From NCBI GenBank assembly GCA_040901985.1, contig JBBDYC010000008.1, positions 80,490 through 144,489 on the forward strand: a DNA stretch of 64,000 nt, in the 5' to 3' direction. The DNA comes from Gemmatimonadaceae bacterium (GTDB lineage Bacteria > Gemmatimonadota > Gemmatimonadetes > Gemmatimonadales > Gemmatimonadaceae). Every line of letters begins with the position of its first letter. Within the stretch, counting starts at the first letter, position 1. The notes under the pieces were generated by a model, which worked only from the letters and a program-made list of their open reading frames with translations, was not told where the DNA came from and did not search any database. The position numbers and the translations under genes were made by a program. Shown piece after piece: positions 7,144 to 60,264 of the stretch.

Positions 7144-7174
7144 CCTGAACCGACGCGCACTCGTAGTCCCGGTG

Positions 7175-7729: not shown

Positions 7730-8043
7730 CTGCAGCGATGACCGGAAAGGAGCGCGCCGCCCTCCGTTCCGAGTGCAACCGCCTCAAGCCGCAGGTCCAC
7801 ATCGGCCAGGAAGGGATCACTCCCGCGCTCGCCGCGGCGCTCGACGACGCGCTGCGGACACGCGAACTCGTAAAGGTGCAGCTCAACCGGACCGCCGGCG
7901 TCAGCGCGCGGGACGCCGCCGTGTCGCTCGCCAAGCGGGTGCGCGCCGAGGTGATCCAGGTGATAGGGCGGACGACGACGCTCTACCGCCACAACCCGCA
8001 GCTCAAGCGAAAGGCCGGCGCGGCTCCGCCCTGGCGTGACTGA
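7726..8043 (+). CDS. yhbY: YhbY/CRM-domain RNA-binding protein
   Basis: LKPQVHIGQEG, ELVKV, QVIGRTTTLYR; ATGA overlap with the M23 gene. Confidence 0.9.
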   Translation: MTAAMTGKERAALRSECNRLKPQVHIGQEGITPALAAALDDALRTRELVKVQLNRTAGVSARDAAVSLAKRVRAEVIQVIGRTTTLYRHNPQLKRKAGAAPPWRD

Positions 8044-10898: not shown

Positions 10899-11024
10899 CT
10901 CAGGGATTTACCGGGACGCGCGAGGACTGTCCAGCCGCCGTGACGCGTCGGGGTGCCGTACCGTCCTTGGTTCGCCTATCTTCAGCCCGTAGGCGCCCGC
11001 GTTGGCACTCCCACTGAGGACCGC

Positions 11025-11288
11025 ATGCCGTACGTGATCACGGAAGCCTGCATCAACACCAAGGACCGGTCCTGCGTGGACGTCTGTCCGGTGGATTGCA
11101 TATATGAGGGTCCGGACCAGCTCTTCATCCACCCCGACGAGTGCATTGACTGCGGCGCGTGCGAGCCGGAGTGTCCGGTGACGGCAATCTTCCCGGAAGA
11201 GGACGTGCCGGCGAACCTCAAGAGCTACATCGCGCTCAACCGCGAGGTCTTTGAGAAGGAGCCGAAGCCGGGGCGGCCGCAACGCTGA
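11025..11288 (+). CDS. Ferredoxin (FdxA-type 7Fe/8Fe)
   Basis: [33 protein letters not shown]...[13 protein letters not shown]. Confidence 0.93.
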
Positions 11289-11303
11289 CTACCCTTTCCC
11301 CTT

Positions 11304-11915
11304 TCACCTCAAGTCCAGCCTGTCCTTCAGCACAAAGAGCGAGATGATCACGATGTATTGAAGGAAGGTGCTGATCTCGCTCTTCCACGCCTCGGCCCAG
11401 TAGAACTCGCCGTCGCTGCGGCCCGTCGGCGGCCGTGGCATCCAGCGCGGGGTGCGCGCCTTGTAGGCGAGGTACTCGCCGGCGAAGATGCTCTCCAGCA
11501 CGCCCTCCTCATAGCGCACGATGTAGTAGTATTCGAGCGCGAAGATCACCGCGGCGACGGGGAGGAACCAGAGGACGCCGCTCAGCGTGATGATTCCCAT
11601 CCAGATGAGAAAGTTGCCGTTGTAGAGCGGGTTGCGGCTCCAGGCAAAGGGACCGTGGGTGACGAGCTTCTGCACGTCGCGCGAACGGCGGCGGGTCACG
11701 GTGCCGGCCGTCGCCACGCCCCAGAGCCGCCACGCCTCGCCGAGCACCATCAGCGCCGCGGCGATCCAGGTCGTGCACGGCGTCATCCCTCCGCTCGAGA
11801 GGAGCGGGACAAGGAGGAACGGCACCGGCAGCCAGCCGCGGTTGCGGAATATCACGGCGCCGATGCGCGCGGCCTGGGTCTGTTCGGCGGCGCTCGGACC
11901 GGCGGGAGCCGACAT
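11304..11915 (-). CDS. Isoprenylcysteine carboxylmethyltransferase (ICMT/PEMT) family membrane methyltransferase
   Basis: LVTHGPFAWSRNPLYNGN, YEEGVL and Y..Y..RTPRW motifs. Confidence 0.85.
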   Translation of the reverse strand: MSAPAGPSAAEQTQAARIGAVIFRNRGWLPVPFLLVPLLSSGGMTPCTTWIAAALMVLGEAWRLWGVATAGTVTRRRSRDVQKLVTHGPFAWSRNPLYNGNFLIWMGIITLSGVLWFLPVAAVIFALEYYYIVRYEEGVLESIFAGEYLAYKARTPRWMPRPPTGRSDGEFYWAEAWKSEISTFLQYIVIISLFVLKDRLDLR

Positions 11916-45356: not shown

Positions 45357-46523
45357 ATGAGCCGCAACCCGCTCTTCATCCTGACGGTCCTCTCGTTGCT
45401 CGTCGTGCTCTCCGAGTGGATCGTCCGGCGCACCGCGCTCCGCCACGTCGGGTCGGCGCTGGTCGTCATCATCCTCGGCGCCGTCGTGTCGAATCTGGGG
45501 CTCATCCCCACCAGTTCCACGCCCGATGCCCCGGTGCCCGTCTACGACGCGGTGTTCGGCGTCGTCGCGCCGATCGCGATTTTCTGGCTCCTGCTCGCCG
45601 TCAACCTGCGGGACGTGCTGAAGGCGGGGCTTCCCCTGATCGCACTCTTCGCGGTCGGCGCGCTGGGGACGATGCTCGGCGTCTTCGCCGGGATGGCGCT
45701 CGTGGACGGCGCCGAGCGAATCGGGCCGCTCTACAACGCCGTCGGCGGAATGTTCACCGGGACGTACATCGGCGGGAGCATCAACTTCAACGCGGTCGCG
45801 CTGGAGTACGGCGTGATGCGCGACGGCCTGCTGTATGGCGGCACGGTGGCGGTGGACAACGTCATCACGACGCTCTGGATTGCCGCGACGCTGGCGCTGC
45901 CACGCCTGTTGCTTCCGATTTGGCGTGGCGTGCGCCCCCGCCCGGACGGCGCGGCGGTCGCGGCGCCCATCATTGACGTGGCCGCCGAGATTGAGACGAT
46001 TGACCCGCGGAAGCTCGCGCTCGTCCTCGCGCTAGGCACCGGCGCGCTCCTGGTGTCCCGCGTGGCGGCCGACGCGTTGGCGCGTGCCGGCGCCAACGTG
46101 CCATCCATCCTGATCATCACCGTCCTCGCGCTCGCGCTGGCGCAGGTCCGCGCGGTGAGCGCGCTGCCGGGCTCGCGCGTGGCCGGGATGTACGCCGTCT
46201 ATCTCTTCCTCGCCGTGATCGGGGCGTTCTGCGACATCGGCGCGATGGCGGGGCTGGGCGCGCTCGGCGCGACCCTGTTGGTCTTTGCGCTGGTTACCGT
46301 GCTCGTGCACGGCGTGGTCACGTTCGGCGCGGCGTGGCTCTTCAAGCTGGATCTCGACGGCGCCGCCGTGGCGTCGCAGGCGAATGTCGGGGGCGCGACG
46401 TCGGCGCTGGCGCTGGCGAAGAGTCTTGGCCGCGAGGACCTGCTCCTGCCGGGAATCCTGCTCGGCTCGCTCGGGAATGCGATCGGGACATTCCTGGCGT
46501 TCCTGATGGCGCGGCTGCTGTGA
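45357..46523 (+). CDS. DUF819 family membrane protein
   Basis: GTYIGGSINF.AV and ASQANVGG..SA; about 11 TM. Confidence 0.85.
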   Translation: MSRNPLFILTVLSLLVVLSEWIVRRTALRHVGSALVVIILGAVVSNLGLIPTSSTPDAPVPVYDAVFGVVAPIAIFWLLLAVNLRDVLKAGLPLIALFAVGALGTMLGVFAGMALVDGAERIGPLYNAVGGMFTGTYIGGSINFNAVALEYGVMRDGLLYGGTVAVDNVITTLWIAATLALPRLLLPIWRGVRPRPDGAAVAAPIIDVAAEIETIDPRKLALVLALGTGALLVSRVAADALARAGANVPSILIITVLALALAQVRAVSALPGSRVAGMYAVYLFLAVIGAFCDIGAMAGLGALGATLLVFALVTVLVHGVVTFGAAWLFKLDLDGAAVASQANVGGATSALALAKSLGREDLLLPGILLGSLGNAIGTFLAFLMARLL

Positions 46524-46609
46524 GGGTGGGGGGCGGGCCGAGCATTGCCGGCTCGCCGATTGCGCGTCCATATTCGGCGGGCGTCATTCCGGATCATTCA
46601 GGAGGCACG

Positions 46610-47248
46610 ATGAAGCCGCTCAGGTTCAGTGTCATCGTCGGGGCGATCGCGCTCTTGGCCGCCGCATCGTCCACCGGCTGTCGGCGCGCGATCGTCATCG
46701 TGCCGCAGACGGAGCGCGGCTACACGGCGACCGACACGCTCTGGGGTCGCTACAAGGGCAACAACGTGCGGGTCACCTTTCGCTTCGACACGCTTTGGCG
46801 CCGGGACACCGTGACGCGCCTCGACACGCTCTGGCGCGCTGGCACGCGAACGCTCGTGCGAGTGGACACGCTGCTCGTGCTGCACGTGGATACCGTCGTG
46901 CGCCGGGACACCGTCCGGGTGACGGTGCGCGACACCATCCGGGTCACGGTGCGCGACACCATCCGGGTCACGGTGCGCGACACGGTGCGGCTGGCGGGCC
47001 GACGTCAGCTCTTCGTGCCGCCAGGTCAATACCCGCCCGACGGCCAGTGCCGGGTGTGGGTCCACGACCTTCCGCCGGGGCGGCAGGCGGCCGCGGCCCC
47101 GTGTAACGCGCTCGGCACGATTCCGGCCGGGGCGTTCATCCTGTTCCGTGGTGACGCGTGGGACTTTGACTACGACTGGGTGGAGGAGGCGCGTCGTGGC
47201 GCTGTGCCGCCGGAGATCGTCGCGCTCAAGCGGCGAGGCGGAAGATAG
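46610..47248 (+). CDS. Hypothetical lipoprotein with DT-x-R/V repeats and PPGQYPP.GQCRVW domain
   Basis: GGAGG RBS; lipobox STGC; repeats of RDT(I/V)RVTV. Confidence 0.7.
   Translation: MKPLRFSVIVGAIALLAAASSTGCRRAIVIVPQTERGYTATDTLWGRYKGNNVRVTFRFDTLWRRDTVTRLDTLWRAGTRTLVRVDTLLVLHVDTVVRRDTVRVTVRDTIRVTVRDTIRVTVRDTVRLAGRRQLFVPPGQYPPDGQCRVWVHDLPPGRQAAAAPCNALGTIPAGAFILFRGDAWDFDYDWVEEARRGAVPPEIVALKRRGGR
46904..46990 (+). repeat. 24-bp coding tandem repeat (about 3.5 copies)
   Basis: cgcgacaccatccgggtcacggtg units encoding RDTIRVTV. Confidence 0.85.
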
Positions 47249-47377: not shown

Positions 47378-48316
47378 ATGACACTCGTGCCTCCGAGTGA
47401 CCTCGACTTCGCGCTCGCTCCATTGCCGTCGGCGCGGACGCCGGAGTGGCGCACAATCCTCGTCGCCACCGACGGATTGCCCGACTCCGACGTCGCAGTG
47501 TTACTCGCGCAGACAGTCGCCGCGCGTTCGGGCGCGATGCTACACGCGATTGCAGTCTGCGACCGGCAGACGATGGTCTACGACCGGAGTGCGCCGGAGT
47601 TTGATGTACTGACGGGGTCGGTCGCCGCCGACGAGCGCGCCGCGGTCGTGACCGGGCAACTCGCCCGGCTGCTTCTCGCGGATGCCTGTCCGCTCGTGGT
47701 CCGCTACGGCGGCGTCGCCGAGGAGGTGCGGCGGCAGGCCAGCGACCTGCGCGCCGACCTCATCGTTGCGGGCCGGGGCCGGCATGGGTTGCTCGCGCGC
47801 CTGCGCGGAGAGGGACACGTCTTGCAGGTGATTCGCGCGGCGCCCTGTTCGGTGCTCGCCGTCGAGGGGGCAGCGGTGTTGCCGCGACGCGTCGTTGTCG
47901 GTATCGACTTCAGCCCACACGGCGCGGACGTTGCGCGCACCGCTGTGCGTCTCGCCGCGGACGAAGCGACGATTTATCTCATGCACGTGAAACCGGACCC
48001 GCCGTTTGGGATTCCACATCCCGGTCGCTGGTTGGAGTCGTACGAGGAGGGTGTCCGAGCTGGCCTCGAGCGGCTCCGGCAGCAGTTGGCGCTCCCGCCG
48101 TCCCGCGCGGTGGAAATCATTGTCGTTCACGGTCACCCCGGGGATGCGCTGGTCGCCTTCGCGCGATCCGCGCAGGCCGACCTGATTGCGGTCGGCCGAC
48201 ACGGGGCGGGATTCCTCGATCGGATGCTGATCGGAAGCGTGACCGCCCGCCTGGTGCATTCGGGAAGCTGCTCGCTCCTTGTCGTGCCGGCGGCGTTCTC
48301 CGACGTGCGGGCGTAA
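47378..48316 (+). CDS. Tandem universal stress protein
   Basis: ILVATDG...ADLIVAG.GRHG; VVGIDFS...ADLIAVGRHG....IGSVT..LV.....LLVVP. Confidence 0.9.
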   Translation: MTLVPPSDLDFALAPLPSARTPEWRTILVATDGLPDSDVAVLLAQTVAARSGAMLHAIAVCDRQTMVYDRSAPEFDVLTGSVAADERAAVVTGQLARLLLADACPLVVRYGGVAEEVRRQASDLRADLIVAGRGRHGLLARLRGEGHVLQVIRAAPCSVLAVEGAAVLPRRVVVGIDFSPHGADVARTAVRLAADEATIYLMHVKPDPPFGIPHPGRWLESYEEGVRAGLERLRQQLALPPSRAVEIIVVHGHPGDALVAFARSAQADLIAVGRHGAGFLDRMLIGSVTARLVHSGSCSLLVVPAAFSDVRA

Positions 48317-48323
48317 TCGGCAG

Positions 48324-49679
48324 TCAGAGCGCTGACGGATAGGTTTCCGGGAGCTCGTCCGCATCCAACTGCCAGGTCGGCGTACGTTCCAGCGGCTCCA
48401 CCGCGCGCGTGCGGTCGTGATGGAAGACGACGTCGAACTGGTCACTCAGGCGCGCGTGGTAGTAGTGGCTCATCCGTTCCGTCTCCGGTCGGTAGATGAC
48501 GCCAATGAAGCGCTCGAGCCGCGGTGAGCCGAGCGCTGCGCGCACGGCCGCGTGCTCCCTGAGGTCGAGGGCGAAGCGATCGATCCCCATCGCGTGGAAG
48601 AGCGCTTCGTAGCTTTCCGGAAGGGCCGGCCGCACGCGCATGCGCTGCGCCGGTGCGCCCCAGTCCGACGCGGCTGTCACGCTCCCTTCATAGGTCGTGA
48701 AGCCAACGAGTAGCGCGTCGCGGCCGTGCGCCTTGCGCACGAGGTGGCCAAGGTTGGTCTCGCCGCGTGCCGAGGCCTCGGTGGCACTCGCGTCACCGAG
48801 GTGCGAGTTGTGTGCCCAGACCACCACCCGGCTCGGCTCGATGCCGGGGCGGTGCCGGTCGAGGTGCGCCACGAGCTGTTCGAGCGTCTCCGCCATATGC
48901 GTGTCGCGGAGGTTCCAGGACGCGGCCCCGCCGTGGTACATCACGCGGTAGTAGCGTTCCGCCTGCACCACCACGCGCGCGTTCTGCTCGGCGTGAAAGA
49001 GCTGCTCGGCGGCGATGCGGTCGTCGAGCGCCGCGTATTCGGACGCCTTGGCCCGCAGCTCCACCAGTTGGCGCACCACCTCTGATTCACAGGACGCTTC
49101 GGAATCCACGAGGGTGGCGTAGCCATAATGTTGCGGATCCGACCCGTACCGCGTGAAGCAGTCGTACCGCCGGAGCGCGCGCAGAGCCGCTGCCGGGTCG
49201 ACGGTGCGCAGATAGGCCACCACGGCCTCGATGGAGGCGTGCAGGCTGTAGAGATCGAGTCCATAGAATCCGACCCGCCGTGCGGGCCGCGCGTCGTTGA
49301 ACGCGCGCAGCCAGCCCACGAAGTCGAGCACGTCGGCGTTGCGCCACATCCACTGCGGGAATCGCGCAAAGTCGGCCAGCGCCTCCTCGGCGTCGCCTAT
49401 CGACGGGTCGCCGCGTACAAAGCGGTTGACGCGATAGGCATGCGGCCAGTCGCCCTCGATCGCGACGGCGGAGAATCCCTGCTCGCGGATGAGGCGCTTG
49501 GTGAGTTCCGCCCGGATCCGGTAGAATTCGTGCGTGCCGTGCGATGCCTCGCCGATGAGCACAAAGCGGCACCCCTCGACACGCCGGAGCAGGGCATCAA
49601 AGTCGCTCGGCGCTCCGGTGAGACGCACCGCCGCCGCGCGGAGATCGTCGAGCGCGGTGCGGGCGAGTGACGAGTTCAT
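48324..49679 (-). CDS. Erythromycin esterase family protein
   Basis: IGEASHGTHEFY, EGDWP, FPQWMWRN, WNLRDTHM and WAHNSHLGD. Confidence 0.92.
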   Translation of the reverse strand: MNSSLARTALDDLRAAAVRLTGAPSDFDALLRRVEGCRFVLIGEASHGTHEFYRIRAELTKRLIREQGFSAVAIEGDWPHAYRVNRFVRGDPSIGDAEEALADFARFPQWMWRNADVLDFVGWLRAFNDARPARRVGFYGLDLYSLHASIEAVVAYLRTVDPAAALRALRRYDCFTRYGSDPQHYGYATLVDSEASCESEVVRQLVELRAKASEYAALDDRIAAEQLFHAEQNARVVVQAERYYRVMYHGGAASWNLRDTHMAETLEQLVAHLDRHRPGIEPSRVVVWAHNSHLGDASATEASARGETNLGHLVRKAHGRDALLVGFTTYEGSVTAASDWGAPAQRMRVRPALPESYEALFHAMGIDRFALDLREHAAVRAALGSPRLERFIGVIYRPETERMSHYYHARLSDQFDVVFHHDRTRAVEPLERTPTWQLDADELPETYPSAL

Positions 49680-49691
49680 GGAGACCGTCGC

Positions 49692-51074
49692 TCAGCGCGA
49701 CCTGGCCGGCAGGGCCGCCGCGTGGGGTGTCAGGTGCTCGGTGAACCAGTCACTCGCGAGCTGCGTAACCTTTGCCATCGAGTCCGGCTCCTCGAAGAGG
49801 TGGCCTGCGCCGGGGACGATCGCCAGTTCGGCGTGCGCGGCCCGCATGCGTTCGCGCGCGGTGCGGTTGAGCTGCAGCACGTCCCGATCGTCGCCACCCA
49901 CGATGAGCAGCGTCGGGGCCGTCACCGCCGCAAGCGACGGGCCGGCGAGGTCGGGACGTCCGCCACGCGACACGACGGCGTAAATGACCGAGCCGCGATC
50001 GGCGGCGGCGCTCAACGCGGCCGCAGCCCCGGTGCTCGCCCCGAAGTAGCCAATCGGTAGGGCATCGACCGCCTCGACCGTGCCGAGCCAGTCGGTGACG
50101 TCGACCAGGCGCTTCGCCAGGAATGGGATGTCGAATCGCAACTCCGCCGTCGTCCGATCAATCACGTCCTCGCGCGGGGTCAACAGGTCGAAAAGGAGCG
50201 TGGCGAAACCGTGCGCACGTAGCGCCGCCGCCACCTCGCGGTTGCGCGGACTCAGCCGACTGCTCCCGCTTCCGTGCGCGAAGACGACGAGGCCGACCGC
50301 GGGCCCTCGCGGCAGGTCGAGCTCACCGGTGAGCTCGCCCGACCGCAACGGAATCTGGACCGTGCGCGCGTCGGGACTCGAGGTCCGAGTCGTCGCCGGG
50401 CCCGATGCGTGGGGGTCCGCCTGGTCGAGGAGGGAGATGACCTCCTCGTCGGTCACCTGCGCGAAGTCACGGTACCAGACGCCGACCGCAAGGAACTCGG
50501 CGGGGGACTCCACGCACTCCACCTCGTCAGCGACGGATTGGAGGGCGTCGCGCGTGGCAGCGGCGATCACGGGCGCCGCCACGATTACGCGCGCGGGATG
50601 AAGCTGGCGCAGAGCGGCGATTGCCGAGAACATCGTCGCGCCAGTCGCGATGCCATCATCAACCAGCACGAGGATCTTCCCGGCGAGGTCGGCCGGGGGC
50701 CGGCCGCGGCGATATACCGCCTCACGGCGCGCGAGCTCGGCGGTCTCGCGACGGGTCACGGCATCTACGTGGTGGCGGGGGACCTCGTGGGCGGCGAGCA
50801 CCTCGGGGTTCATCCATCGCACACCGCCCGACGCGACCGCTCCCATCGCAAACTCCTCGTGCCCCGGCAGTCCAAGTTTACGGACGATGAACAGGTCAAG
50901 TGGTTGCCGGAGGGCTCGGGCGACCTCGAACGCAACGGGGACGCCGCCGCGCGGCAATGCCAGGATGACGACGTTCGACCGTCCCGTCAGGTGGCGCAGT
51001 CGCTCGGCGAGCTGCGTTCCCGCCTGGCGGCGGTCGTCGAACCGCGGGGACCCGTACCGAATCATGCTCCACAT
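49692..51074 (-). CDS. Phosphoribosyltransferase fused to dienelactone-hydrolase-like alpha/beta domain
   Basis: LALPRGGVP and LVDDGIATG (PRPP loop); FAHGSGSSR.SPRN, GASTG and GAGHLFEE. Confidence 0.9.
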   Translation of the reverse strand: MWSMIRYGSPRFDDRRQAGTQLAERLRHLTGRSNVVILALPRGGVPVAFEVARALRQPLDLFIVRKLGLPGHEEFAMGAVASGGVRWMNPEVLAAHEVPRHHVDAVTRRETAELARREAVYRRGRPPADLAGKILVLVDDGIATGATMFSAIAALRQLHPARVIVAAPVIAAATRDALQSVADEVECVESPAEFLAVGVWYRDFAQVTDEEVISLLDQADPHASGPATTRTSSPDARTVQIPLRSGELTGELDLPRGPAVGLVVFAHGSGSSRLSPRNREVAAALRAHGFATLLFDLLTPREDVIDRTTAELRFDIPFLAKRLVDVTDWLGTVEAVDALPIGYFGASTGAAAALSAAADRGSVIYAVVSRGGRPDLAGPSLAAVTAPTLLIVGGDDRDVLQLNRTARERMRAAHAELAIVPGAGHLFEEPDSMAKVTQLASDWFTEHLTPHAAALPARSR

Positions 51075-51225
51075 CCGTCGACTGGTACTCTCAGTGTACG
51101 CCGCTGTCGTCCGGGGCGCAGTCGGCGTATTCCCGCACGTGGAATCGGCATTTCACCGACAGATTGCGCTGGGCGATGACCCCTCCTTGAAGGTGTACGG
51201 CGCCATCCTTGCATAGGAGGTTGAA

Positions 51226-51672
51226 ATGCTCGCCCGCGACATCATGACGCTTGAACCGGCCGTCGTCACGGCCACTGACACGGTGCCCGTGGCGGCACAG
51301 TTGATGCGCACCCGAGACGTCGGGATGTTGCCGGTCGTCGACGATCTCGTGCATCGGCGTCTCGTCGGTGTGCTCACCGACCGAGACATCGTCCTCCGGT
51401 ACGTCGCGCCGGAGCACGGCCGGCTGGCCAGCGTACGGGACCATATGACGCGCGAGCCGATGGTCACGGCCACCGCGACGAGCACCATCGCGGAAGTCGT
51501 CGCGAGGATGTCGCGGCACCAGGTGCGACGCCTGCCGGTCGTCGACGCGAACGATGCGGTGATTGGCGTGATCGCACAGGCCGACATCGCGCTCAAGGTG
51601 CGGCCGCACGACGCCGACCTGGTCGATCACCTCACCGAGGCGATCTCGCGGCCCGGCGCGCTGGTGCACTGA
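51226..51672 (+). CDS. CBS domain pair protein
   Basis: AGGAGG RBS; LPVVD...GVLTDRDI; VRRLPVVD....GVI..DI. Confidence 0.92.
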   Translation: MLARDIMTLEPAVVTATDTVPVAAQLMRTRDVGMLPVVDDLVHRRLVGVLTDRDIVLRYVAPEHGRLASVRDHMTREPMVTATATSTIAEVVARMSRHQVRRLPVVDANDAVIGVIAQADIALKVRPHDADLVDHLTEAISRPGALVH

Positions 51673-52140
51673 GCGGATTGCTGTAGGCTGACCGCCTAGG
51701 TGATTCCCGCGCGCGGGTTCAGGGAATCCCGTATTGGTCGGCCGGCAGCCGGGACGCAGATTCCGCTTGCGTTCGCGAGACGGTTTCTCGCGGATGGATC
51801 CTTCCCACAGGACGCTGGCGGAAGGGCGCTTGGCGGAGTTCGACAACGTCAGGCAGGTCGTGAGGTCGCTGGACACGATCGAGGCCCCGAATACGGGGCA
51901 CCTGAGTCGGGACCGTCCGACGAGGGCAAGGGACGCGGTGAGGCCATGTATCGCGTGGCGAGTCGAAACAGAGATCCGGGTTCCACCAGCGGAAGCGACC
52001 CTCGCACGGCAGCGATGCTACGGTGCGAGGGTCGCTCTTCAATTGGGCCGAGCCAACAGCGAGGTGTTCCCCGGCACGGACTTGAGCCTGCCGGATGATC
52101 CATCGTCATCAGGGGCTCGCGTCCGGCGCTCGCCGGGCCG

Positions 52141-52968
52141 CTAGAATCCCTTGCGTGCCTCTGCTTCGCTGGGGAATACGGCGAGAATCGTGGAGAAGCC
52201 GGAGATGTCGAACACCTCCCGGACCGTGTCGTTGAGGCCGAACGTGCGCAGGGCGCCTCCCGTCGCGGTCATCCGCTTGGCGGCGCCGAGCAGGACGCGG
52301 AGTCCAGCGCTGCTGATGTAGTCAAGCGCGGTGAAGTCCACCGCGAGCTTCCGCGCGCCACCGGCGAGGATCGCGTCGAGGACCTGCTGGGCCTCGGGCG
52401 ACGTGACGCTGTCGAGATTGCCGGCCAAGGCCACGATTGTGACGTCATCCTGCGTGCGCGTCGTGATCTCCATCAACCTCCCTCCGCGATGACCGTCTGC
52501 CACCCCACCTGCCAGGAGCTTCACCAGGACCACGACATTGCTGTCGCCGCGGCGGTGGTAGCTGACCTCGTCCACCAATCGCCGGACCAGATGAATGCCG
52601 AGTCCGCCGATCGGCCGCTCCACCAAGGACAGCTTGGTATCGGGCGCGGCCCTGCCGACCGGGTCGAACGGCTTGCCATTGTCGGTAAGCGTGACCGTCA
52701 ACCGATCCGATTGTAGATCCACGTCAATCGTCACCTCGCCGTCCTCGCGCTCGGCCAATCCGTACGTCACGGTATTGGCCAGCAGCTCGTCCAGCACGAC
52801 GTTCATACTGCGCCGGATCGCCGCCGGCAAGGCGTGCGCATCCGTGAAGTCCGCAAAGGTCGCATTGACCTTGGCGACCTCACCGGGATCCCTGCCGATT
52901 GACATCCGGAAGCCTGCTGGCATCTCGCCCTCCGGCGTGCCGCTCAATGACGCTGGCCACGCCGTCAT
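52141..52968 (-). CDS. RsbW-like anti-sigma kinase (HATPase_c) fused to RsbV-like STAS anti-anti-sigma domain
   Basis: DELLANTV.YG, TDNGKPFDP and GGLGIHLV; then MEITTR...GNLDS...DF..LDYISSAGLRVL. Confidence 0.88.
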   Translation of the reverse strand: MTAWPASLSGTPEGEMPAGFRMSIGRDPGEVAKVNATFADFTDAHALPAAIRRSMNVVLDELLANTVTYGLAEREDGEVTIDVDLQSDRLTVTLTDNGKPFDPVGRAAPDTKLSLVERPIGGLGIHLVRRLVDEVSYHRRGDSNVVVLVKLLAGGVADGHRGGRLMEITTRTQDDVTIVALAGNLDSVTSPEAQQVLDAILAGGARKLAVDFTALDYISSAGLRVLLGAAKRMTATGGALRTFGLNDTVREVFDISGFSTILAVFPSEAEARKGF

Positions 52969-53114
52969 CTGTCAACCTCCGGTCCCCTGTCCGGCATTTG
53001 CCGAGGGGGCGCTGGCGGGTGCACGTTTCCCCGGCTCCCCCCCCCCCTCGCCACCGCCTCGGGCCCCCACCCGTCCGATGGACGTTTCCAACCTTTGGCG
53101 CCCTGGACTGTACT

Positions 53115-53672
53115 TTGGTCGAGTCCCCCGCTGCGGCTACGGAAGACGAACAGGACCGAGCGCTCGTCCGGAGGTGCCTGGATGGCGAACGGAACGCGGC
53201 CAGCGATCTGGTGGATCGCTATCAGCGTCGCCTGTTCAATGTCGCGTTCCGGATGCTCGGCAACGTGCAGGACGCGGAGGACGTCACCCAGACGGTGTTC
53301 GGCAATGCGTTCGTCTCGCTGGGGAGCTTCGACCCGAAGTACCGGTTCTTCAGCTGGATCTATCGGATGGCGGTCAACGAGTCGTTGAACACGCTCAAGC
53401 GCCGGAAGCGGATGGTCACGTTGGAGGACCACCTGGCCATCCCGGCGCCGGGCGGCGGAACTGATGATGCATTGGAGGCGGAGGATCGAGTGGAAAAGGC
53501 GCTGATGGACCTCAAGCCTGACGATCGGGCCGTGGTGGTGCTCCGGCACTTCGTGTCGTTCTCCTACGAGGAGATGGCCGACGTGCTGGAGGTGCCCGTC
53601 CGTACCGTCAAGTCGCGCCTCTTCACGGCACGGGAACGGCTGCGCCAGGCGTTGCTCGGGCGGGGCGCCTGA
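53115..53672 (+). CDS. ECF RNA polymerase sigma factor (start approximate, TTG 53115)
   Basis: DAEDVTQTVF, FFSWIYRMAVN and SYEEMA.VL....TVKSRLFTAR. Confidence 0.92.
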   Translation: MVESPAAATEDEQDRALVRRCLDGERNAASDLVDRYQRRLFNVAFRMLGNVQDAEDVTQTVFGNAFVSLGSFDPKYRFFSWIYRMAVNESLNTLKRRKRMVTLEDHLAIPAPGGGTDDALEAEDRVEKALMDLKPDDRAVVVLRHFVSFSYEEMADVLEVPVRTVKSRLFTARERLRQALLGRGA

Positions 53673-53674
53673 CG

Positions 53675-54931
53675 ATGCTGAGCGCGGACCAGATTGAGCT
53701 GATCCATCGGGAGATCGATGGTGAGAACACGCCGGAGGCGAGTGCCGCGTTCCGGTCGTTGCTGGAGAGGGACCAGGAAGCGCGCGCCCTCGCGGCGGAC
53801 CTGCGGGACCTTGCCGCGCTCCTTGGCCGGGAACAGGAACGCGCGCCGCCGCCGCATCTCCGGCCAACGATTCTCGAGGCGCTGGCACTGCAAACGCGAG
53901 CATCACCGAGGACTGCATCGGCATGGATGGCCCCGCAGGCGATCGTTCAACGGCTTGTTTCCCAGTGGCGAGTTTCCCTAAGGCGAATGGAGGAGGCGAT
54001 GATTACGAAGAAGGCGCTGATCGTCGGGACCACCGTGGTGGCGATAGTCGCCGTCATCGGCGGCGTCGTGGTCGGGTACCCACCGAGCGGCGACGAAGCC
54101 GGCACGATCGGCGGGGTCCAGCAGGCGGCACGGTATCGCGGACGGCCGATGACCGAGGCCGATGTGACCATCGCGAACCCCGAGATCCAGGTGCTGTTCC
54201 AGAACCACGATGTCCTGACCCTGGTCAAGAGCGACGTCTTCCGCTCGGCGATGCGGAACGACGCGTTCAGGGAGTTGCAGTCCAGCGAGGCCTTCCGCCA
54301 ACTGATGGCGAGCGATGCGTATCGCCAGTTGATGGCGAGCGATGCCTACCGCCAGTTGATGGCGAGCGAGGCCTATCGCGAGCTGGCGTCGAGCGAGGCC
54401 TATCGCGAACTGGCGTCGAGCGAGGCCTACCGCGAGCTGATGTCCAGTGACGCCTATCGCTCGTTGCAGTCCAACGAGGCGTACCGCGCGCTGCAGGCGC
54501 AGGACGCGTTCCGCAACGTGCAGTCCAGCGAGGCGATGCGCGCGCTCCAGGCCAACGAGGCCTACCGGTCGTTGCAGGCGAATGAGGCGTACCGCGCGGC
54601 GATGGCCAGCGAGGCCTTCCGCGCCGTGCAGGCCAACGATGCGTTCCGCGCCGTGCAGGCCAACGAGGCGTATCGTGCGGTGATGGCGAACGACGCGTTC
54701 CGTGCGGTGATGGCGAACGACGCGTTCCGTGCGGTGATGGCGAACGACGCGTACCGCGCGGCAATGGCCAGCGATGCGTTCCGTTCCGTGATGGCGAACG
54801 ATGCGTTCCGCGCGGTGATGGCGAACGATGCGTACCGGCAGCTCCAGTCGGCCGAGATGTTCCGCGCACTGTCGAGGAGCGCACAGATGTCCGAGGCGTT
54901 CATGAGCCAGGCGATGCGCGTCGTGCAGTAA
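53675..54931 (+). CDS. Putative anti-sigma factor: zinc-free ASD-like N-terminus, one TM, extracytoplasmic 9-aa helical repeat array
   Basis: LIHREIDGE...LERDQEAR..APPPHLR, directly after the ECF gene; TM ALIVGTTVVAIVAVIGGVVV; (S/N)(D/E)A(F/Y)Rxxxx repeats. Confidence 0.78.
   Translation: MLSADQIELIHREIDGENTPEASAAFRSLLERDQEARALAADLRDLAALLGREQERAPPPHLRPTILEALALQTRASPRTASAWMAPQAIVQRLVSQWRVSLRRMEEAMITKKALIVGTTVVAIVAVIGGVVVGYPPSGDEAGTIGGVQQAARYRGRPMTEADVTIANPEIQVLFQNHDVLTLVKSDVFRSAMRNDAFRELQSSEAFRQLMASDAYRQLMASDAYRQLMASEAYRELASSEAYRELASSEAYRELMSSDAYRSLQSNEAYRALQAQDAFRNVQSSEAMRALQANEAYRSLQANEAYRAAMASEAFRAVQANDAFRAVQANEAYRAVMANDAFRAVMANDAFRAVMANDAYRAAMASDAFRSVMANDAFRAVMANDAYRQLQSAEMFRALSRSAQMSEAFMSQAMRVVQ
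54176..54900 (+). repeat. 27-bp (9-aa) coding tandem repeat array, about 24-27 units
   Basis: For example gcgaacgacgcgttccgtgcggtgatg repeated; units SDAYRQLMA, SEAYRELAS, NDAFRAVMA. Confidence 0.92.
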
Positions 54932-54952
54932 CGGCACCAGCAGCAGGGTTCG

Positions 54953-54994
54953 GCGCTGGCCCCGGCTCCCTCTAACGGGAGTCGGGGCCAGCGC
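54953..54994 (+). terminator. 18-bp GC-rich stem-loop after the repeat gene (terminator or mRNA-stabilising hairpin)
   Basis: gcgctggccccggctccc-tctaac-gggagtcggggccagcgc, followed by gtactttcc (weak U tract). Confidence 0.65.
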
Positions 54995-55010
54995 GTACTT
55001 TCCGGCCACT

Positions 55011-58007
55011 GTGGCCAAGAATCAACTGCGAGTCGCTAGGGGCGCCGGCTGCGGGCGCGTCCGGGGGGTCCTGGCCCTCCTCGTTTGCGTCGGCGCGGTT
55101 GCGCCGTCCGGTCTTGCCGCGCAGTTCCAGGCGGTTGAGACCGCCAGTATGCGGCTGGTGTACACCTCGCCGCTCCAGTCCTACCTCGTGCCGCAGGTGA
55201 CCGCGAGCTTCGAGAATGCGCTGCGGTTCCACCGCCAGCTCTTCGACTATGCGCCGGGAGGCCGGATCAACGTGCTGATGCACGACCTCTGGCACTACGG
55301 CAACGCGGGGGCGCGTCCGGTGCCGGAGAACCACGTCACCATAGGGATCGCGCCGTACGGACACGACTACGAGTCGGCGCCCGCTCCCGAACGAATGGCG
55401 TCGTCGATGAACCACGAGCTGGCGCACATCGTCACCACCGACAAAGCGACCCGGTCCGACCGGTTCTTCCGCTCGATCTTCTTCGGCAAGGTCACGCCAA
55501 ACGCGGAAGTGCCGCCCTCGATGCTCTACAGCTACCTGACCACGCCGCGCTGGTACGCGCCGCGCTGGTACCTCGAGGGAATCGCCACCTATCTCGAGAC
55601 GTGGATGAACGGCGGGCTGGGGCGTGCCATCGGTCCCTACGACGAGATGGTCTTCCGCACCCTCGTCCGCGACAGCCTCACGATGTACGACGTCGTCGGG
55701 CTCGAATCCGAGGGCACGACAATCGATTTCCAGGTGGGCGTGAACTCGTATCTCTACGGGACGCGGTTCATCAGCTATCTCGCGCTCCAGTACGGAAACG
55801 ACTCCTTGCTGGGGTGGGTCAATCGGTCCGAGGGCAGCAAGCGGTACTTCTCGTCGCAGTTCAGGAACGTGTTCGGGAGGTCGCTCGCGGACGAGTGGTC
55901 GCGATGGATTGACTGGGAGCGCGAGTGGCAGCGAGACAACCTGGCGGCGATTCAGCGGCACCCGACCACCGTTGCGCGACCGCTCACCAATCGGGTGCTC
56001 GGATCGGTGTCCCGCGCGTACTACGACCCGGCAAAGGGCAGCGTCCTCGTGGCCGTTCGCTATCCGGGCCAGGAAGCCCACATCGCCAGCATTGACGTCG
56101 CGTCCGGACGGTTCACGCGGGTCGGCGACATCACCGCCGCGGGGGGTCTGTCCGTGACGTCGCTGGTGTTCGATGCGGCGACGCGGACGCTCTTCTACAC
56201 CACCAACAACGCGGACTATCGTCACATACTCTCGATGGACCTCGAGACGGGCCGCTCCACGGTCCTGCTCAAGAACGGGCGCATCGGCGACCTCGCCTTC
56301 AACGCGGCGGACCGTTCCTTGTGGGGCGTCCGGCACGACAACGGGTTCTCGACGCTGGTGCGCCTTCCGCATCCGTACAGCGAGTGGCATCAGGTCCACA
56401 CGCTGCCGTACGGCAGGGACCTCTTCGACCTGGACGTCTCGCCGGACGGCACGGCCCTCATCGGGTCGATGTCGGAGATAAGCGGGGACACTCGCCTCGT
56501 GCGGATGAACATCGCCACGCTTCTTTCGGGCGATGCCGCGCACGAGGTGCTCTTCGAGTTCGGCCAGTGGTCGCCGTCGAACTTCGTCTTCTCCCAGGAC
56601 GGGCGGTACATCTTCGGCTCGTCCTACTACTCCGGCGTCTCCAACATCTTCCGGTACGAAGTCACGACGCGGGAGATGGAGGCCGTGACCAATGCGGAGA
56701 CGGGCTTCTTCAAGCCGTTGCCCATCTCCGATGACTCCCTCGTCGTCTTCGCCTACTCGGGCACCGGATTCGTGCCCTCGATGATCCCGAACGCGGTGAC
56801 GGATAGCGTGAGCGCGATTCAATTCCTCGGCAACGAGATCGCCGAGCGACGGACCGAGGTGCAGTCGTGGATGCCGCCGCCCGTCTCCGACATCAACGTT
56901 GATGCGCTGACGACGGCGACCGGCACCTACAGCACGGCGCGGAATTTCAAGTTGGACAACGCGTACCCGGTCGTGGAGGGATACGAGGATGCGCTGGGCA
57001 ACACTGCCGTCGCCGGCGGCGTGCGGCTCAACTTCTCGGACCGGATCGGAGCGACGGGGCTCGAGTTCACCGCGTCGTACTCTCCCGACGAGGACCTCGA
57101 CGAGTACGAGCACCTTCACCTGCGCGCGGTCTTCCGCCACTGGAACTGGAAGGTCTCGGCGGCGCTCAATCGGGCCGACTTCTACGACCTCGTCGGCCCG
57201 ACGAAGGTGAGCCGTCGTGGCTATTCGCTGGCGCTCCAGTACCAGGGCAATGTCTTCTACGATGGCCCGCGGAGCCTGGGCTACACGTTGCAGGCGGCGG
57301 GGTACGGCGACCTGGCGATCGTGCCGGAGTTCCAGAATGTCGCGGCGTCGTTCGACAAGCTCGCGTCGTTCTCCGGCGACCTCGCGTACAAGTCCCTCCG
57401 GCGGTCGCTTGGCGCCATTGACGACGAGCTCGGTGCGACGTGGGGAGCGGGGATTCGCGGCAACTACGTGAACGCGACGCTGCACCCACGCGTGAGCATG
57501 GATGCGTCGAGGGGATTCCTCCTGCCGCTGGATCACTCGTCGCTCTGGTTCCGCGCCTCGGCGGGGTCGGCGCTCGGCCCCGACCGGGCCGACCCATTCG
57601 CGCGGTTCTACTTCGGTGGGTTCGCCAACAACTGGGTGGACTACCGGGCAATCAAGCAGTTTCGGAACACCGAGGCCTTCCCGGGCCTCGACATCAACGA
57701 GATTGGCGGCGCCACGTACGCCAAGGCGCAGGTGGAGTGGATGTCACCGCCCCTCCGCTTTCGGAGCGTCGGCATCCCGAGCGCGTATTTCCGCTGGGCC
57801 GGACTGTCGCTGTTCGCGAGTGGGCTTGCCACCGACGTGGATGACGCGACGGCCAGGCGTACCTTCACAAGCGCGGGGGCGCAGGTGGACCTCCGACTCG
57901 TCACGATCTCCCATCTCGAGTCCACCTTCTCCGTCGGCTACGGCGTGGCGAAGGGGCAGGGCGTCCCGCTCAGCAACGCCCTGATGGTTTCGTTCAAGAT
58001 CATGTGA
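55011..58007 (+). CDS. Outer-membrane protein: gluzincin-like peptidase domain, beta-propeller, C-terminal beta-barrel
   Basis: Signal peptide ending LAAQ; HELAH...PRWYLEGIATY.E; TolB/WD-like blades (VSPDG, FSQDGRYI); amphipathic C-terminal strands. Confidence 0.75.
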   Translation: MAKNQLRVARGAGCGRVRGVLALLVCVGAVAPSGLAAQFQAVETASMRLVYTSPLQSYLVPQVTASFENALRFHRQLFDYAPGGRINVLMHDLWHYGNAGARPVPENHVTIGIAPYGHDYESAPAPERMASSMNHELAHIVTTDKATRSDRFFRSIFFGKVTPNAEVPPSMLYSYLTTPRWYAPRWYLEGIATYLETWMNGGLGRAIGPYDEMVFRTLVRDSLTMYDVVGLESEGTTIDFQVGVNSYLYGTRFISYLALQYGNDSLLGWVNRSEGSKRYFSSQFRNVFGRSLADEWSRWIDWEREWQRDNLAAIQRHPTTVARPLTNRVLGSVSRAYYDPAKGSVLVAVRYPGQEAHIASIDVASGRFTRVGDITAAGGLSVTSLVFDAATRTLFYTTNNADYRHILSMDLETGRSTVLLKNGRIGDLAFNAADRSLWGVRHDNGFSTLVRLPHPYSEWHQVHTLPYGRDLFDLDVSPDGTALIGSMSEISGDTRLVRMNIATLLSGDAAHEVLFEFGQWSPSNFVFSQDGRYIFGSSYYSGVSNIFRYEVTTREMEAVTNAETGFFKPLPISDDSLVVFAYSGTGFVPSMIPNAVTDSVSAIQFLGNEIAERRTEVQSWMPPPVSDINVDALTTATGTYSTARNFKLDNAYPVVEGYEDALGNTAVAGGVRLNFSDRIGATGLEFTASYSPDEDLDEYEHLHLRAVFRHWNWKVSAALNRADFYDLVGPTKVSRRGYSLALQYQGNVFYDGPRSLGYTLQAAGYGDLAIVPEFQNVAASFDKLASFSGDLAYKSLRRSLGAIDDELGATWGAGIRGNYVNATLHPRVSMDASRGFLLPLDHSSLWFRASAGSALGPDRADPFARFYFGGFANNWVDYRAIKQFRNTEAFPGLDINEIGGATYAKAQVEWMSPPLRFRSVGIPSAYFRWAGLSLFASGLATDVDDATARRTFTSAGAQVDLRLVTISHLESTFSVGYGVAKGQGVPLSNALMVSFKIM

Positions 58008-59020
58008 CGACCGTCGTCGCGCTCGCCGTCAGCGTCTTGCCGATCTTCCTGTTCCTCGGCGCGCTGGTGCTCATTGACAGCTACAAGCTTGTCGCGCTGC
58101 GGGCGGTCCTGCTCTCGGTCGCCGCCGGCGTCGCCGCAGGCCTTGCCAGCTACGCGGTGAATGTCTGGCTCCGGCCGGCGCTCGGGCTGGCCCCGTCGCA
58201 ATACTCGATGTACGTCGCACCCGTCGTCGAGGAGACGCTCAAGGCCGCGTATGTCGTGTACCTGCTGTCGAGAAGCAAGGTCGGGTTCGTTGTGGACGCC
58301 GCCATCTATGGATTCGGCATCGGCACCGGCTTCGCCTTTCTGGAGAACCTCTACTATCTGCTCGTGAGTCCCGACGCCGCGATCTGGACCTGGATCGTGC
58401 GGGGCTTCGGCACCGCGGTGATGCACGGCGGCGCCACCGCCATCCTCGCGATGGTCGCCAAGACGCTGCACAATCGCCTCGATGGCTTCAGGCCGTACCT
58501 CCTGTTGCCGGGTCTCCTCGTGGCCGTGGTCCTCCACTCGCTGTACAACCAGTTCCTCCTGCAACCGCTGATCGCGACGGCGTTGATCGTGTTGGTCTTT
58601 CCCTATGTCAGCATCGCCATCTTCCAGCAGAGCGAGCGCGACACGAAATCGTGGTTGGGCAGCGGGTTCGACACCGACCAGGAGCTGCTCAGGGCCATTC
58701 GCACGGGGCAGGTGGCGGCGACGCCGGCGGGGAAGTATCTCCTGACCGTACGCAGTCGCTTCTCCCCGGAGGTCATCGTGGATATGCTGTGCCTCCTCCG
58801 ACTGCGCGCCGAGCTGGGCATCCGCGCCAAGGGCATCCTGATGCTGCGCGAGGCCGGATTCGATCCCGAGCCGGACCCCGCCGTGAAGCGCACGTTCGAG
58901 GAACTGCGGTATCTGGAACGGAGCATCGGGAAAACCGGGATGCTCTCCCTGCATCCGTTCCTCCACACCAGCACGCGCGACCTCTGGCAACTCAATCTGC
59001 TTGACGAGATGCAGGGATGA
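58004..59020 (+). CDS. PrsW-family glutamic-type intramembrane protease with C-terminal soluble extension
   Basis: APVVEETLK (EExxK), GFAFLEN (FxxxE), AVMHG and LHSLYN motifs; GTGA overlap. Confidence 0.88.
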   Translation: MTTVVALAVSVLPIFLFLGALVLIDSYKLVALRAVLLSVAAGVAAGLASYAVNVWLRPALGLAPSQYSMYVAPVVEETLKAAYVVYLLSRSKVGFVVDAAIYGFGIGTGFAFLENLYYLLVSPDAAIWTWIVRGFGTAVMHGGATAILAMVAKTLHNRLDGFRPYLLLPGLLVAVVLHSLYNQFLLQPLIATALIVLVFPYVSIAIFQQSERDTKSWLGSGFDTDQELLRAIRTGQVAATPAGKYLLTVRSRFSPEVIVDMLCLLRLRAELGIRAKGILMLREAGFDPEPDPAVKRTFEELRYLERSIGKTGMLSLHPFLHTSTRDLWQLNLLDEMQG

Positions 59021-60264
59021 GCGACTCCCCCACGCCGTCGAGGGGCACCCAGACCACGCTCCGCGCCCTGCCAAAGGCGCTGGTCGTCGGCCGGGCCGGC
59101 GCGGATGCCGCAGCCCTCGTCCGTAGCGTCGAGGCAGAAGGGTATCTCGTGTTCGCGGCTGTCCAGGCCGACGACGCACTGCAGCGACTTCGCGCCGCAC
59201 GGTTCGACTTGGTGTTGCTGGATGCGGACGTACCCGCGATGGGCGGGCCGCAGTTCGTCGAGACGCTGCGGAGTGATGCCGAGCTGGCGAGCGTTCCCGT
59301 CCTCGTGATCTCGGCGGCGGACGATACGGATGCCATCGAGCGGTGCCTCGAGAAGGGCGCCGACGACTATCTCCCCAAGGTGTTTGGTCCGGCCGTGCTG
59401 CGGGCCCGCGTCAGCGCGGCGCTGGACCGTCGGCGCCTACGGGACAACGTGAAGCTGCGGCGCGAGATGGATGTCGCGCGGAACATCCAGCGGGACTTTC
59501 TCCCCGAGTCACTCCCCGCCGTGCGCGGCGTGCAACTCGAGGCCGCATTGCATCCGGCGCGTCAGGTCTCCGGCGACTTTTACGACGCGTTCACCCTGGC
59601 GCCCTCCGGCAACCTCGTCCTGGTCGTTGGGGATGTGTGCGACAAGGGGGTCGGCGCGGCGTTGTTCATGGCCCTCTTCCGCAGTCTCATCCGTGCGTCC
59701 GCGGATCCAGTGGGTGGCGGCGCGATCCAGATGATTGGTGGCCGGCGCACGCTCGTGATGCAGTCGCTGGAGGCCGCCACGCCGGCCGACCTGTTGACGC
59801 GGGTCGCGGGTTTTACCAACAACTACATCGCGAGGTTGCACGGACGCACCAATATGTTCGCCACCGTCTTTCTGGCGGTGCTCGATCCGGCCTATGGCAC
59901 GCTCAACTATGTCAACGCCGGCCACGAGCCGGCGCTCGTGATCGCCCCGGACGGGACGATGCGGGAACTGCGACCGACTGGTCCGGCGCTCGGGATGATG
60001 CCGGATTCGGTGTTCACGGCGGTTGGGGGAACGCTCGAGAGCGGAGAGACGCTCTTTGCGTTCACGGACGGATTGGCCGAGGCGCGGAGCCCGACCGGCG
60101 AGGTGTACGGCAGCGAGCGGTTGCGGCAGGTGGTGCGCTCGCACGCCAGCGGATCGGCATCGGAGCTCGTGACGGGCGTCATTGATGCGCTCAAGGCGTT
60201 CACGCGGCAGGCCGAGCCGCACGATGACCTGACCTTGCTTGCGGCGAAACGCACGAGCGGGTGA
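59017..60264 (+). CDS. Receiver domain plus PP2C/SpoIIE phosphatase (RsbU/RsbP-like)
   Basis: LVLLD...ISA...GADDYLPK; ARNIQRDFLP, SGDFYD, GDVCDKG, FTDGL.E and DDLT; ATGA overlap. Confidence 0.92.
   Translation: MSDSPTPSRGTQTTLRALPKALVVGRAGADAAALVRSVEAEGYLVFAAVQADDALQRLRAARFDLVLLDADVPAMGGPQFVETLRSDAELASVPVLVISAADDTDAIERCLEKGADDYLPKVFGPAVLRARVSAALDRRRLRDNVKLRREMDVARNIQRDFLPESLPAVRGVQLEAALHPARQVSGDFYDAFTLAPSGNLVLVVGDVCDKGVGAALFMALFRSLIRASADPVGGGAIQMIGGRRTLVMQSLEAATPADLLTRVAGFTNNYIARLHGRTNMFATVFLAVLDPAYGTLNYVNAGHEPALVIAPDGTMRELRPTGPALGMMPDSVFTAVGGTLESGETLFAFTDGLAEARSPTGEVYGSERLRQVVRSHASGSASELVTGVIDALKAFTRQAEPHDDLTLLAAKRTSG

Follow-up and report, generated by a model that had tools for sequence, protein, structure and literature searches.

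What kind of system is formed when a sigma factor of the extracytoplasmic function (ECF) type, a membrane-anchored repeat protein, an outer-membrane peptidase-barrel protein, a PrsW protease and a partner switch share one locus? Such a locus lies at 52141 to 60264 of the window analysed here, a stretch of 64,000 nucleotides from contig JBBDYC010000008.1 of a Gemmatimonadaceae bacterium (assembly GCA_040901985.1), whose genome is 2.64 Mb in size and 99.97% complete. An earlier note, written from the sequence alone, had described the locus as a candidate signalling system in which a signal could pass along the repeat protein across the periplasm to PrsW and an anti-sigma factor. I compared the locus with its relatives. 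Judged from the sequences, the most constant core is three genes, one for PrsW, one for a zinc-peptidase/propeller/BamA-like barrel protein and one for a membrane-anchored protein whose conserved leader precedes a hypervariable tail, and the ECF and partner-switch layers are optional. The module is apparently one copy of a widespread and undescribed envelope system.

Conservation of the locus

The six open reading frames (ORFs) claimed for this region were all found in place. As for the junctions, the gap of 79 nucleotides (nt) and the GTGA and ATGA overlaps were borne out, but the first gap is 2 nt, not 3. Two sets of relatives were used. The close set consists of 54 loci located via the barrel protein (by label, 52 from Gemmatimonadota, one from Balneolaceae and one from Ramlibacter), and the distant set consists of the best 80 of 554 metagenome loci from a wider alignment of the barrel protein, with GC contents from 0.31 to 0.71. 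The closest loci to the window are those of Gemmatimonadota. The gene-neighbourhood check proposed in the earlier note came out clearly: all seven modules are present in 27 of the 28 close loci with full flanks, and the flanking genes of the window (metallo-beta-lactamase fold, GreA, CBS and phosphoribosyltransferase (PRTase)) recur in none of the 54. In the distant set, 59 of the 60 loci that extend at least 1.3 kb upstream have a gene with the leader close to the barrel gene, and PrsW is found in 41 of the 42 that extend at least 600 bases downstream. The 22 fully flanked distant loci have the leader in 22, PrsW in 22, the ECF gene in 20, RsbV in 18, RsbW in 16 and PP2C in 5. Close and distant synteny thus back the claim of a single conserved, apparently undescribed unit.

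The leader gene, PrsW and the peptidase-barrel gene co-occur nearly one to one. In a census of 301 genomes of the phylum, 11 were found to have the leader and 13 a PrsW orthologue that is full or nearly so; in each of the 11 leader-bearing genomes PrsW is on the same contig, and one of them (G115) holds two of each. Neither the leader nor the PrsW orthologue was found in the five genomes of the same genus. PrsW and the barrel also exist as a single polypeptide (P0143, a cluster of 4), while a barrel-PrsW fusion suspected in L012 was rejected, since it is artificial and due to an N gap. The barrel protein has relatives, known from sequences only, in Woeseiaceae, Saprospiraceae, Bacteroidales, Cloacimonetes and Thiomargarita, and the leader has relatives in Thermoanaerobaculia and Acidobacteriota. 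A plasmid search gave one weak partial match.

Is the ECF sigma factor a constant part of the module? It is not: the repeat protein, the barrel protein and PrsW persist without it, twice in one genome that is 96% complete. This genome (G303, of L053; the contig is the same as in G115) has two loci of leader, barrel and PrsW, and neither a promoter motif nor, at an E-value of 1e-25 with the query used, an ECF match was found in it. Seven metagenome loci have no ECF gene within their flanks and retain partner-switch genes. The gene order differs among lineages.

A few variants were seen. L124 has two leader-bearing genes (6860-7909 and 10924-11904) on either side of the barrel gene. In the Balneolaceae locus (L055:3031-7033), the DNA upstream of rsbW also encodes a Ser/Thr kinase and another STAS protein, the second in this locus. 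The genome of the window has a distant paralog of the peptidase-barrel protein (G000:C1:121751) without a leader gene or PrsW.

The leader and the tail of the repeat protein

The 418-residue protein of the window was expected to have a transmembrane (TM) helix and nine-residue repeats, and both are there. It has one TM helix and, at residues 168-410, 27 in-register units with the consensus [SN]-[DE]-A-[FY]-R-x-hydrophobic, encoded by DNA with a period of 27 nt. The units are predicted to form a chain of short helices; the single-sequence fold was poor, with a low predicted local distance difference test (pLDDT) score of 43, and was not used for fold search. In its stand-alone form, the repeat gene begins with a leader made of basic residues, the TM helix, Pro-Pro and G[TSA][IMFV]G, followed by a second motif, [KR][YH]...D[VI]xL. 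A motif of the G[TSA] type is found in 74 of 74 leaders, 8-15 residues past the TM helix, and the second motif in 68 of 74 leaders and in none of 30 anti-sigma factors. No Cys is conserved in this N-terminal signal.

Behind the leader, the tail is 168-739 residues long and unrelated between lineages. Periods of 9, 11, 12, 18 or 34 residues, or none, were seen across the loci; the period is 9 or a multiple of it in 28 of 59 tails, another value in 7 and not clear in 24. The tails are mostly helical and rich in Met, Leu and Phe, amphipathic, near-neutral, and poor in Cys and Trp. Some are of the beta type or non-repetitive, such as those of L129, which is of the beta type, and L072. No recognised toxin domain was found in the tails, and the matches of the repeats to Plasmodium_HRP, BACK and STI1 were handled as compositional or as leads only. 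Another genome (G102) gave a weak match to the repeat profile with no cluster genes around it.

Since the conserved part of the repeat protein adjoins the inner membrane and its far end is unrelated between lineages, the idea of a signal-carrying rod fits poorly. The repeat protein is also usually the product of a separate gene without an anti-sigma domain (33 rows of the tree table, against 18 with a fusion).

A motif shared with the anti-sigma factor

The N-terminal domain of the 418-residue protein had been read as anti-sigma-like, and this part of the description is less firm, its match being weak and below the cut-off (NF052375, E 1.4e-7, 31.8 bits, cut-off 100). The domain is called anti-sigma-like from the place of its gene at +1 to the sigma gene, its helical N-terminal domain and the weak profile matches; no zinc-binding motif was found in it. 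In most distant loci the anti-sigma factor is encoded by a separate gene. This stand-alone protein, about 250-270 residues in length, has an N-terminal helical domain, a TM helix and a beta-rich domain. Among 30 such proteins (29 metagenome proteins of 220-330 residues and that of L052), 28 have G[TSA][MILF] at 9-20 residues past the TM helix. Control windows taken elsewhere in these proteins have it in 18 of 112 cases, and the Gly of the motif is the second most conserved column. The G[TSA]-hydrophobic motif, located 8-20 residues past the membrane helix, is a candidate PrsW site common to the anti-sigma factor and the repeat protein. Since this juxtamembrane motif is conserved and genes for site-2 M50 proteases are present in the genome of the window, it is plausible that PrsW cleaves the anti-sigma factor.

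A predicted start codon nested in the fused gene

In 46 of the 54 close loci, the anti-sigma domain is in frame with the leader. It was found that the fused gene has an internal ATG before the TM helix (53999 in the window), preceded by a Shine-Dalgarno (SD) sequence of at least -5 kcal/mol strength in all 45 fused genes where the search pattern placed it, and of -7 kcal/mol or stronger in 38 of them. For 2381 other internal ATGs the proportions are 20% and 5%, respectively. The 45 leave out L055, two stand-alone genes, three genes that are cut, one that has an N gap and one that the pattern missed. Just ahead of the ATG, 33 versions of the preceding five residues were seen over an unchanged purine run, and this suggests selection on the RNA. 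A strong SD and start codon are also present in the fusions of L055, L085, L094, L099 and L111. On a quick tree of 62 barrel-protein rows, L099 not among them, which came from a less careful search, the fused state requires four changes, at least three of them forced by well-supported branches; some may be losses. From the conserved SD and ATG, two isoforms are predicted, a long one of 418 residues and a short one of 310 residues, the latter equivalent to the product of the stand-alone repeat gene of other lineages.

In L052, the non-coding stretch 5' of the stand-alone repeat gene (6396-6566) gives a translation that shares 40% identity with the fused protein's linker. It may be that intergenic DNA was recruited as the linker, or that L052 results from a secondary split.

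The sigma factor, its promoter and the hairpin

The assignment of the first gene on the plus strand as an ECF sigma factor held, with matches to Sigma70_r2 and r4_2 and 101 bits for TIGR02937 (cut-off 42.9). Its likely start is TTG at 53115, giving 185 residues. It was not recognised as a SigW orthologue (NF007223, 118 bits with a cut-off of 209; TIGR02948, 116 with a cut-off of 243), and no ECF group with PrsW, STAS, SpoIIE or a barrel protein in this context was found in the portions of the main text and supplement of PMC7826278 that were available.

A promoter-like motif, CCAAC-N16-xGTA, was found at the start of the ECF gene in 43 close loci and in 29 of 39 distant loci. Ahead of stand-alone repeat genes it recurs in 14 of the 32 loci that carry the ECF gene and in none of the 7 that lack it; L055 and L099 have it before their fused gene. 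The genome of the window has one strict site, at the locus itself, and 22 loose matches. The TTG of the sigma gene lies 2 nt behind the GTA, upstream of the predicted +1. Over 77 loci, 68 have their first in-frame start codon 0-4 nt behind the GTA. By analogy with the numbering of the -35 elements of SigW and SigE (PMC6713349), +1 would be near 53123. Since this is behind TTG 53115, the sigma-driven transcript would be without the sigma start codon. The promoter could also be read as leaderless, but this is a poor fit, as the start codon is frequently TTG and follows the -10 motif by 0-4 nt.

The repeat gene is followed by a hairpin (54955-54992) with compensatory changes at 7 of 10 consensus pairs in 29 sequences. 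Its z score is below -3 in 33 of 56 distant loci, compared with 3 of 56 controls, and it has no match in Rfam. The hairpin may be a leaky terminator or an mRNA stabiliser. Since the promoter, the strong SD and the hairpin come together at the repeat gene, they suggest that the repeat protein is the main, abundant product.

The loop (CTAAC) and the tail (xGTAcTT) of the hairpin (54973-55001) resemble the sigma motif in Gemmatimonadota, with a 17-nt spacer. No strict promoter site was found before the barrel gene in the distant loci. A TGCACGTT-like motif lies at 53020-53027, between rsbW and the ECF gene, and was seen by eye in several homologous intergenic regions. It is possibly a promoter element of the divergent gene or of basal sigma expression.

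The peptidase-propeller-barrel protein and PrsW

The 998-residue protein was rightly read as a peptidase, propeller and barrel. It has HELAH at residues 135-139 and E189, and no match in Pfam, PF01103 included. An AlphaFold2 (AF2) model from 75 sequences (pLDDT 94.9, predicted template modelling score 0.92) has an N-terminal alpha/beta domain, a propeller and a barrel, for which 16 strands were counted in the DSSP string. The propeller resembles TolB (Z 22.9), and the barrel resembles Deinococcus BamA (8xnb; Z 19.7, 290 aligned residues, root-mean-square deviation 3.9). The fold-search lists were dominated by the propeller, and no separate match came out for the peptidase fold. A sequence search of the PDB gave no match for the protein, and its profile matched propellers only.

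The PrsW assignment also stood (PF13367, 74.8 bits, cut-off 23.5). The motifs are EExxK (76-80), FxxxEN (110-115), H141 and HxxxN (178-182), while the score against the Bacillus equivalog NF033739 is 22.9 bits with a cut-off of 225. The C-terminal domain of about 130 residues belongs to no Pfam family. The catalytic motifs are intact in 83 of 83 PrsW sequences and in 127 of 127 outer-membrane peptidases.

The partner switch

A kinase, a STAS antagonist and a PP2C phosphatase of the RsbU/V/W kind are all present (HATPase_c_2 86.6 bits and STAS 66.7 bits in the RsbW-RsbV gene; TIGR00377 82.4 against 53.45). RsbW and RsbV are in one frame in the window as described, but only 15 of the 44 loci have such a fusion, and RsbV retains an SD and an ATG of its own (52473); free RsbV is probably made as well. 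For the REC-PP2C protein, both REC and SpoIIE were matched, but the acidic pair of REC was seen by eye in only 2 of 33 aligned domains, and REC is absent in 6 of 39 loci. A second phosphorylation input through REC is not supported by these counts.

Does RsbW act on the ECF sigma factor? Partner-switch genes are kept in the ECF-less loci, and in four ECF-bearing loci (L072, L074, L082 and L088) neither RsbW nor RsbV is in range. Thus, the ECF sigma factor is unlikely to be the RsbW target.

In many homologs, a Thr-rich N-terminal motif, TPxRGTxTTLR (59017-59075 in the window), precedes the degenerate REC domain, and it is a possible Ser/Thr phosphorylation site. A second set of PP2C, RsbW and RsbV genes exists elsewhere in the genome (G000:C9:28415-30809).

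Features of the window

The features of the module are collected in Table 1.

Table 1. Positions of the genes and elements of the module, in window coordinates
Feature	Position	Strand	Basis
RsbW-like Ser kinase in frame with RsbV-like STAS domain	52141..52968	-	profile matches
ECF-type promoter motif CCAAC-N16-TGTA	53088..53115	+	43 close-locus sites
ECF sigma factor, about 185 residues	53115..53672	+	profile matches
Long isoform, 418 residues: anti-sigma-like domain, linker, TM helix, GTIG leader, nine-residue helical repeats	53675..54931	+	
Internal SD GGAGGAGG and in-frame ATG (53999)	53989..54001	+	45/45 fused genes
Predicted short isoform, 310 residues, without anti-sigma domain	53999..54931	+	start inferred
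GTIG motif (residues 143-146), candidate site-1 cleavage site	54101..54112	+	motif comparison
27 in-register nine-residue units	54176..54928	+	DNA period of 27 nt
Long G+C hairpin, then short U-rich tail	54955..54992	+	covariation, z scores
Signal peptide, HExxH...E zinc peptidase, TolB-like propeller, 16-strand BamA-like barrel, without POTRA	55011..58007	+	
PrsW-family intramembrane protease and C-terminal domain of about 130 residues	58004..59020	+	PF13367, motifs
Degenerate receiver domain fused to SpoIIE/PP2C phosphatase	59017..60264	+	profile matches

The GC content is 0.66 over 52001-60000 and 0.68-0.72 in the flanks. Together with the absence from the five genomes of the same genus, this lower GC points to either transfer or repeated loss. 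Stress-type genes adjoin the module at 47378-51672 (a universal stress protein, an erythromycin-esterase family protein, a PRTase-hydrolase fusion and a CBS pair), and the PRTase and CBS genes have no synteny with the module in the loci compared. An ORF at 46334-47248 has short DT[IV]RVTVR repeats after a signal-like stretch and is unrelated to the module.

A possible mechanism and its rivals

What would a system with such a core do? The explanation that I prefer, with a probability of about 45%, is that PrsW releases the anchored repeat protein, the barrel protein handles or exports it, and the anti-sigma factor reports on that step. The ECF sigma factor would transcribe the anti-sigma gene, the repeat gene and the downstream genes from just inside its own start, and so without positive feedback. 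The repeat protein would be inserted as a type II inner-membrane precursor and cut by PrsW at or near G-T. The released piece would then be taken up, via its second motif, by the periplasmic propeller and peptidase and either trimmed and passed to the surface or degraded. The same protease would cut the anti-sigma factor, to be followed by a site-2 protease, so that sigma activity would track PrsW activity. In the window, one gene would make the short form in bulk and a minor long form with the anti-sigma domain. The RsbW/RsbV/PP2C switch would act not on the ECF sigma factor but on the machinery after transcription, like BtrUVW on Bordetella secretion. There are precedents for several steps: the cut that PrsW makes in RsiW is outside the membrane and falls between small residues (PMC8767453), the sorting of MYXO-CTERM proteins depends on a protease of the CPBP family (PMC11980579), and BtrUVW controls secretion beside the ECF sigma factor BtrS (PMC7498569).

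A more specific form of this explanation can be offered only tentatively, namely that the module represents an export or sorting class of diderms, in which PrsW removes the TM-GTIG leader and a POTRA-less Omp85 protein with a zinc peptidase matures and exports the hypervariable helical-repeat protein. It is conceivable, though less than even, that the anti-sigma factor shares the protease site so as to couple transcription to throughput, and that several lineages independently nested cargo and anti-sigma factor in one gene. With no greater assurance, the exported protein could be a surface coat, a fibre or a source of repeated peptides. Several observations weigh against the preferred explanation. 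The barrel protein has neither POTRA domains nor the VRGY-type loop motif, which makes translocation by it putative; with their mostly helical structure, the tails differ from two-partner cargo. For the shared motif, a short one, the pattern was drawn from the same, related sequences, and in the shorter anti-sigma factors of L080, L091 and L095, which were dropped by the length filter, A replaces G. No promoter was found before the repeat gene in 18 of 32 ECF-bearing loci. The ECF-less metagenome loci were viewed over at most 8 kb on each side, and the loci are related, so that the counts overstate independence.

Could the locus be a trans-envelope signalling system after all? In that case the repeat protein would act in the periplasm as a sensor or rod in contact with the outer-membrane peptidase, and its clipping or movement would license PrsW to cut the anti-sigma factor. 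I regard this as doubtful. The ECF gene is found in 20 of the 22 fully flanked distant loci, the repeated fusion indicates that an anti-sigma factor can have the repeat part as its ectodomain, and site-2 proteases are present. However, the core survives without the ECF sigma factor, and the one strict promoter site is the locus itself, leaving little output besides the repeat protein, which the promoter, strong SD and hairpin mark as abundant; the far end of the tail is unconserved and its length varies fourfold. It is unlikely that the system serves envelope quality control, with the Met/Leu/Phe-rich helical tails taking up unfolded proteins or membrane-active peptides in the periplasm, as a sponge or holdase, for degradation by the barrel-anchored peptidase, and with the load triggering PrsW and the sigma factor. 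The nearest Atlas clusters have STI1-HOP_DP in 10-25% of their members (scores 0.79-0.82, a lead only); the amphipathic, near-neutral tails would suit such a role, as would the response of B. subtilis PrsW to membrane-active peptides (PMC8767453). In contrast, some tails are beta-type or non-repetitive (L129, L072), and the patchy distribution (11 of 301 genomes, 0 of 5 in the genus) is unusual for housekeeping.

The cleavage step itself may be questioned. FecR and FoxR cleave themselves at Gly-Thr, and signal peptidases follow -3/-1 rules. If the G-T site were cut in either way, by signal peptidase I or by itself, PrsW would have another substrate. Two residues ahead of G there is often V, A or L, in keeping with the -3/-1 rule, but Glu is found at -3 in 11 of 74 leaders, that of the window included, and the site is 8-20 residues from the helix. 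An N-O acyl shift is impossible at G-A, the pair seen in 11 of the 74 leaders and in 4 of the 30 anti-sigma factors. Even with the precedent of RsiP, whose site-1 cleavage is by signal peptidase (PMC8844934), I find this quite improbable, since PrsW is nearly always adjacent with its motifs intact. As for a chance cluster of unrelated regulatory genes, each part comes from a common family and the order varies; but the synteny in 27 of 28 close loci and in the distant loci, flanks that recur in 0 of 54, and the shared promoter and hairpin refute it, leaving it next to no probability.

If the preferred explanation of release and handling holds, it would provide a substrate and a job for the catalogued but unstudied propeller-Omp85 proteins, and it would make PrsW a leader peptidase in Gram-negative bacteria, with a short cleavage motif on offer. 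It would also present a gene with nested starts that encodes a regulator together with the product under its control, and a compact system for asking what a partner switch does when it holds no sigma factor.

Comparison with known systems

Literature searches found no description of the system, with most subscription papers outside reach. Two-partner secretion (TpsB/TpsA) differs in that two POTRA domains stand where a peptidase and a propeller are found here. Two-partner cargo has a TPS beta-helix domain, for which no Pfam match was found here and a helical prediction was obtained instead. In polymorphic toxin export (Zhang et al. 2012, PMC3482391), PrsW was likewise proposed to release a variable C-terminal part. 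PrsW is fused to toxin domains there, whereas here a gene of its own encodes it, the tails consist of low-complexity repeats and the partner is an outer-membrane barrel. Myxosortase MrtX (PMC11980579) is a CPBP-superfamily intramembrane protease that cuts by a TM helix at a short motif on variable proteins. The MYXO-CTERM signal is C-terminal with an invariant Cys, with dozens of substrates per genome and type II secretion, in contrast to the N-terminal leader and one or two substrates in the locus found here.

The Bordetella btr locus (PMC7498569) has the ECF sigma factor BtrS, an anti-sigma factor coupled to export (secreted BtrA) and BtrU/V/W in one locus, and its switch acts on secretion. 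It controls a type III injectisome, however, and in the sections of PMC7498569 seen it is without PrsW or an Omp85-peptidase and its anti-sigma factor is soluble. Cell-surface signalling (FecA/FecR/FecI; IutY, PMC5411451) also joins an outer-membrane protein, an anti-sigma factor and an ECF sigma factor in one locus with proteolytic activation. Instead of a TonB-dependent 22-strand receptor and a FecR domain, the present locus has a 16-strand BamA-like barrel with a peptidase.

The closest likeness in regulation is to SigW/RsiW/PrsW/RasP of Bacillus subtilis, which shares the ECF sigma factor, a single-pass anti-sigma factor at +1, PrsW with all four motifs, a SigW-like -35 (AACxTT), an xGTA -10 and M50 proteases. 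The present system differs in being from diderms, in having the PrsW gene in one operon with the genes of an Omp85-like peptidase and of a hypervariable protein that bears the leader, in that the ECF sigma factor can be lost, and in a regulon that seems to be the locus alone. In architecture, the barrel protein resembles the WD40-Omp85 subfamily (Heinz and Lithgow 2014, PMC4104836), in which a TolB-like propeller replaces POTRA on an Omp85-type barrel; a propeller N-terminal to a 16-strand barrel without POTRA was found here by fold only. The parts of PMC4104836 consulted propose a BamA/BamB-like role and name no HExxH peptidase, PrsW or partner genes. Compared in this way, the three-gene core fails a defining feature of every system tested, and it is built from members of known families, to which the putative function given above would be added.

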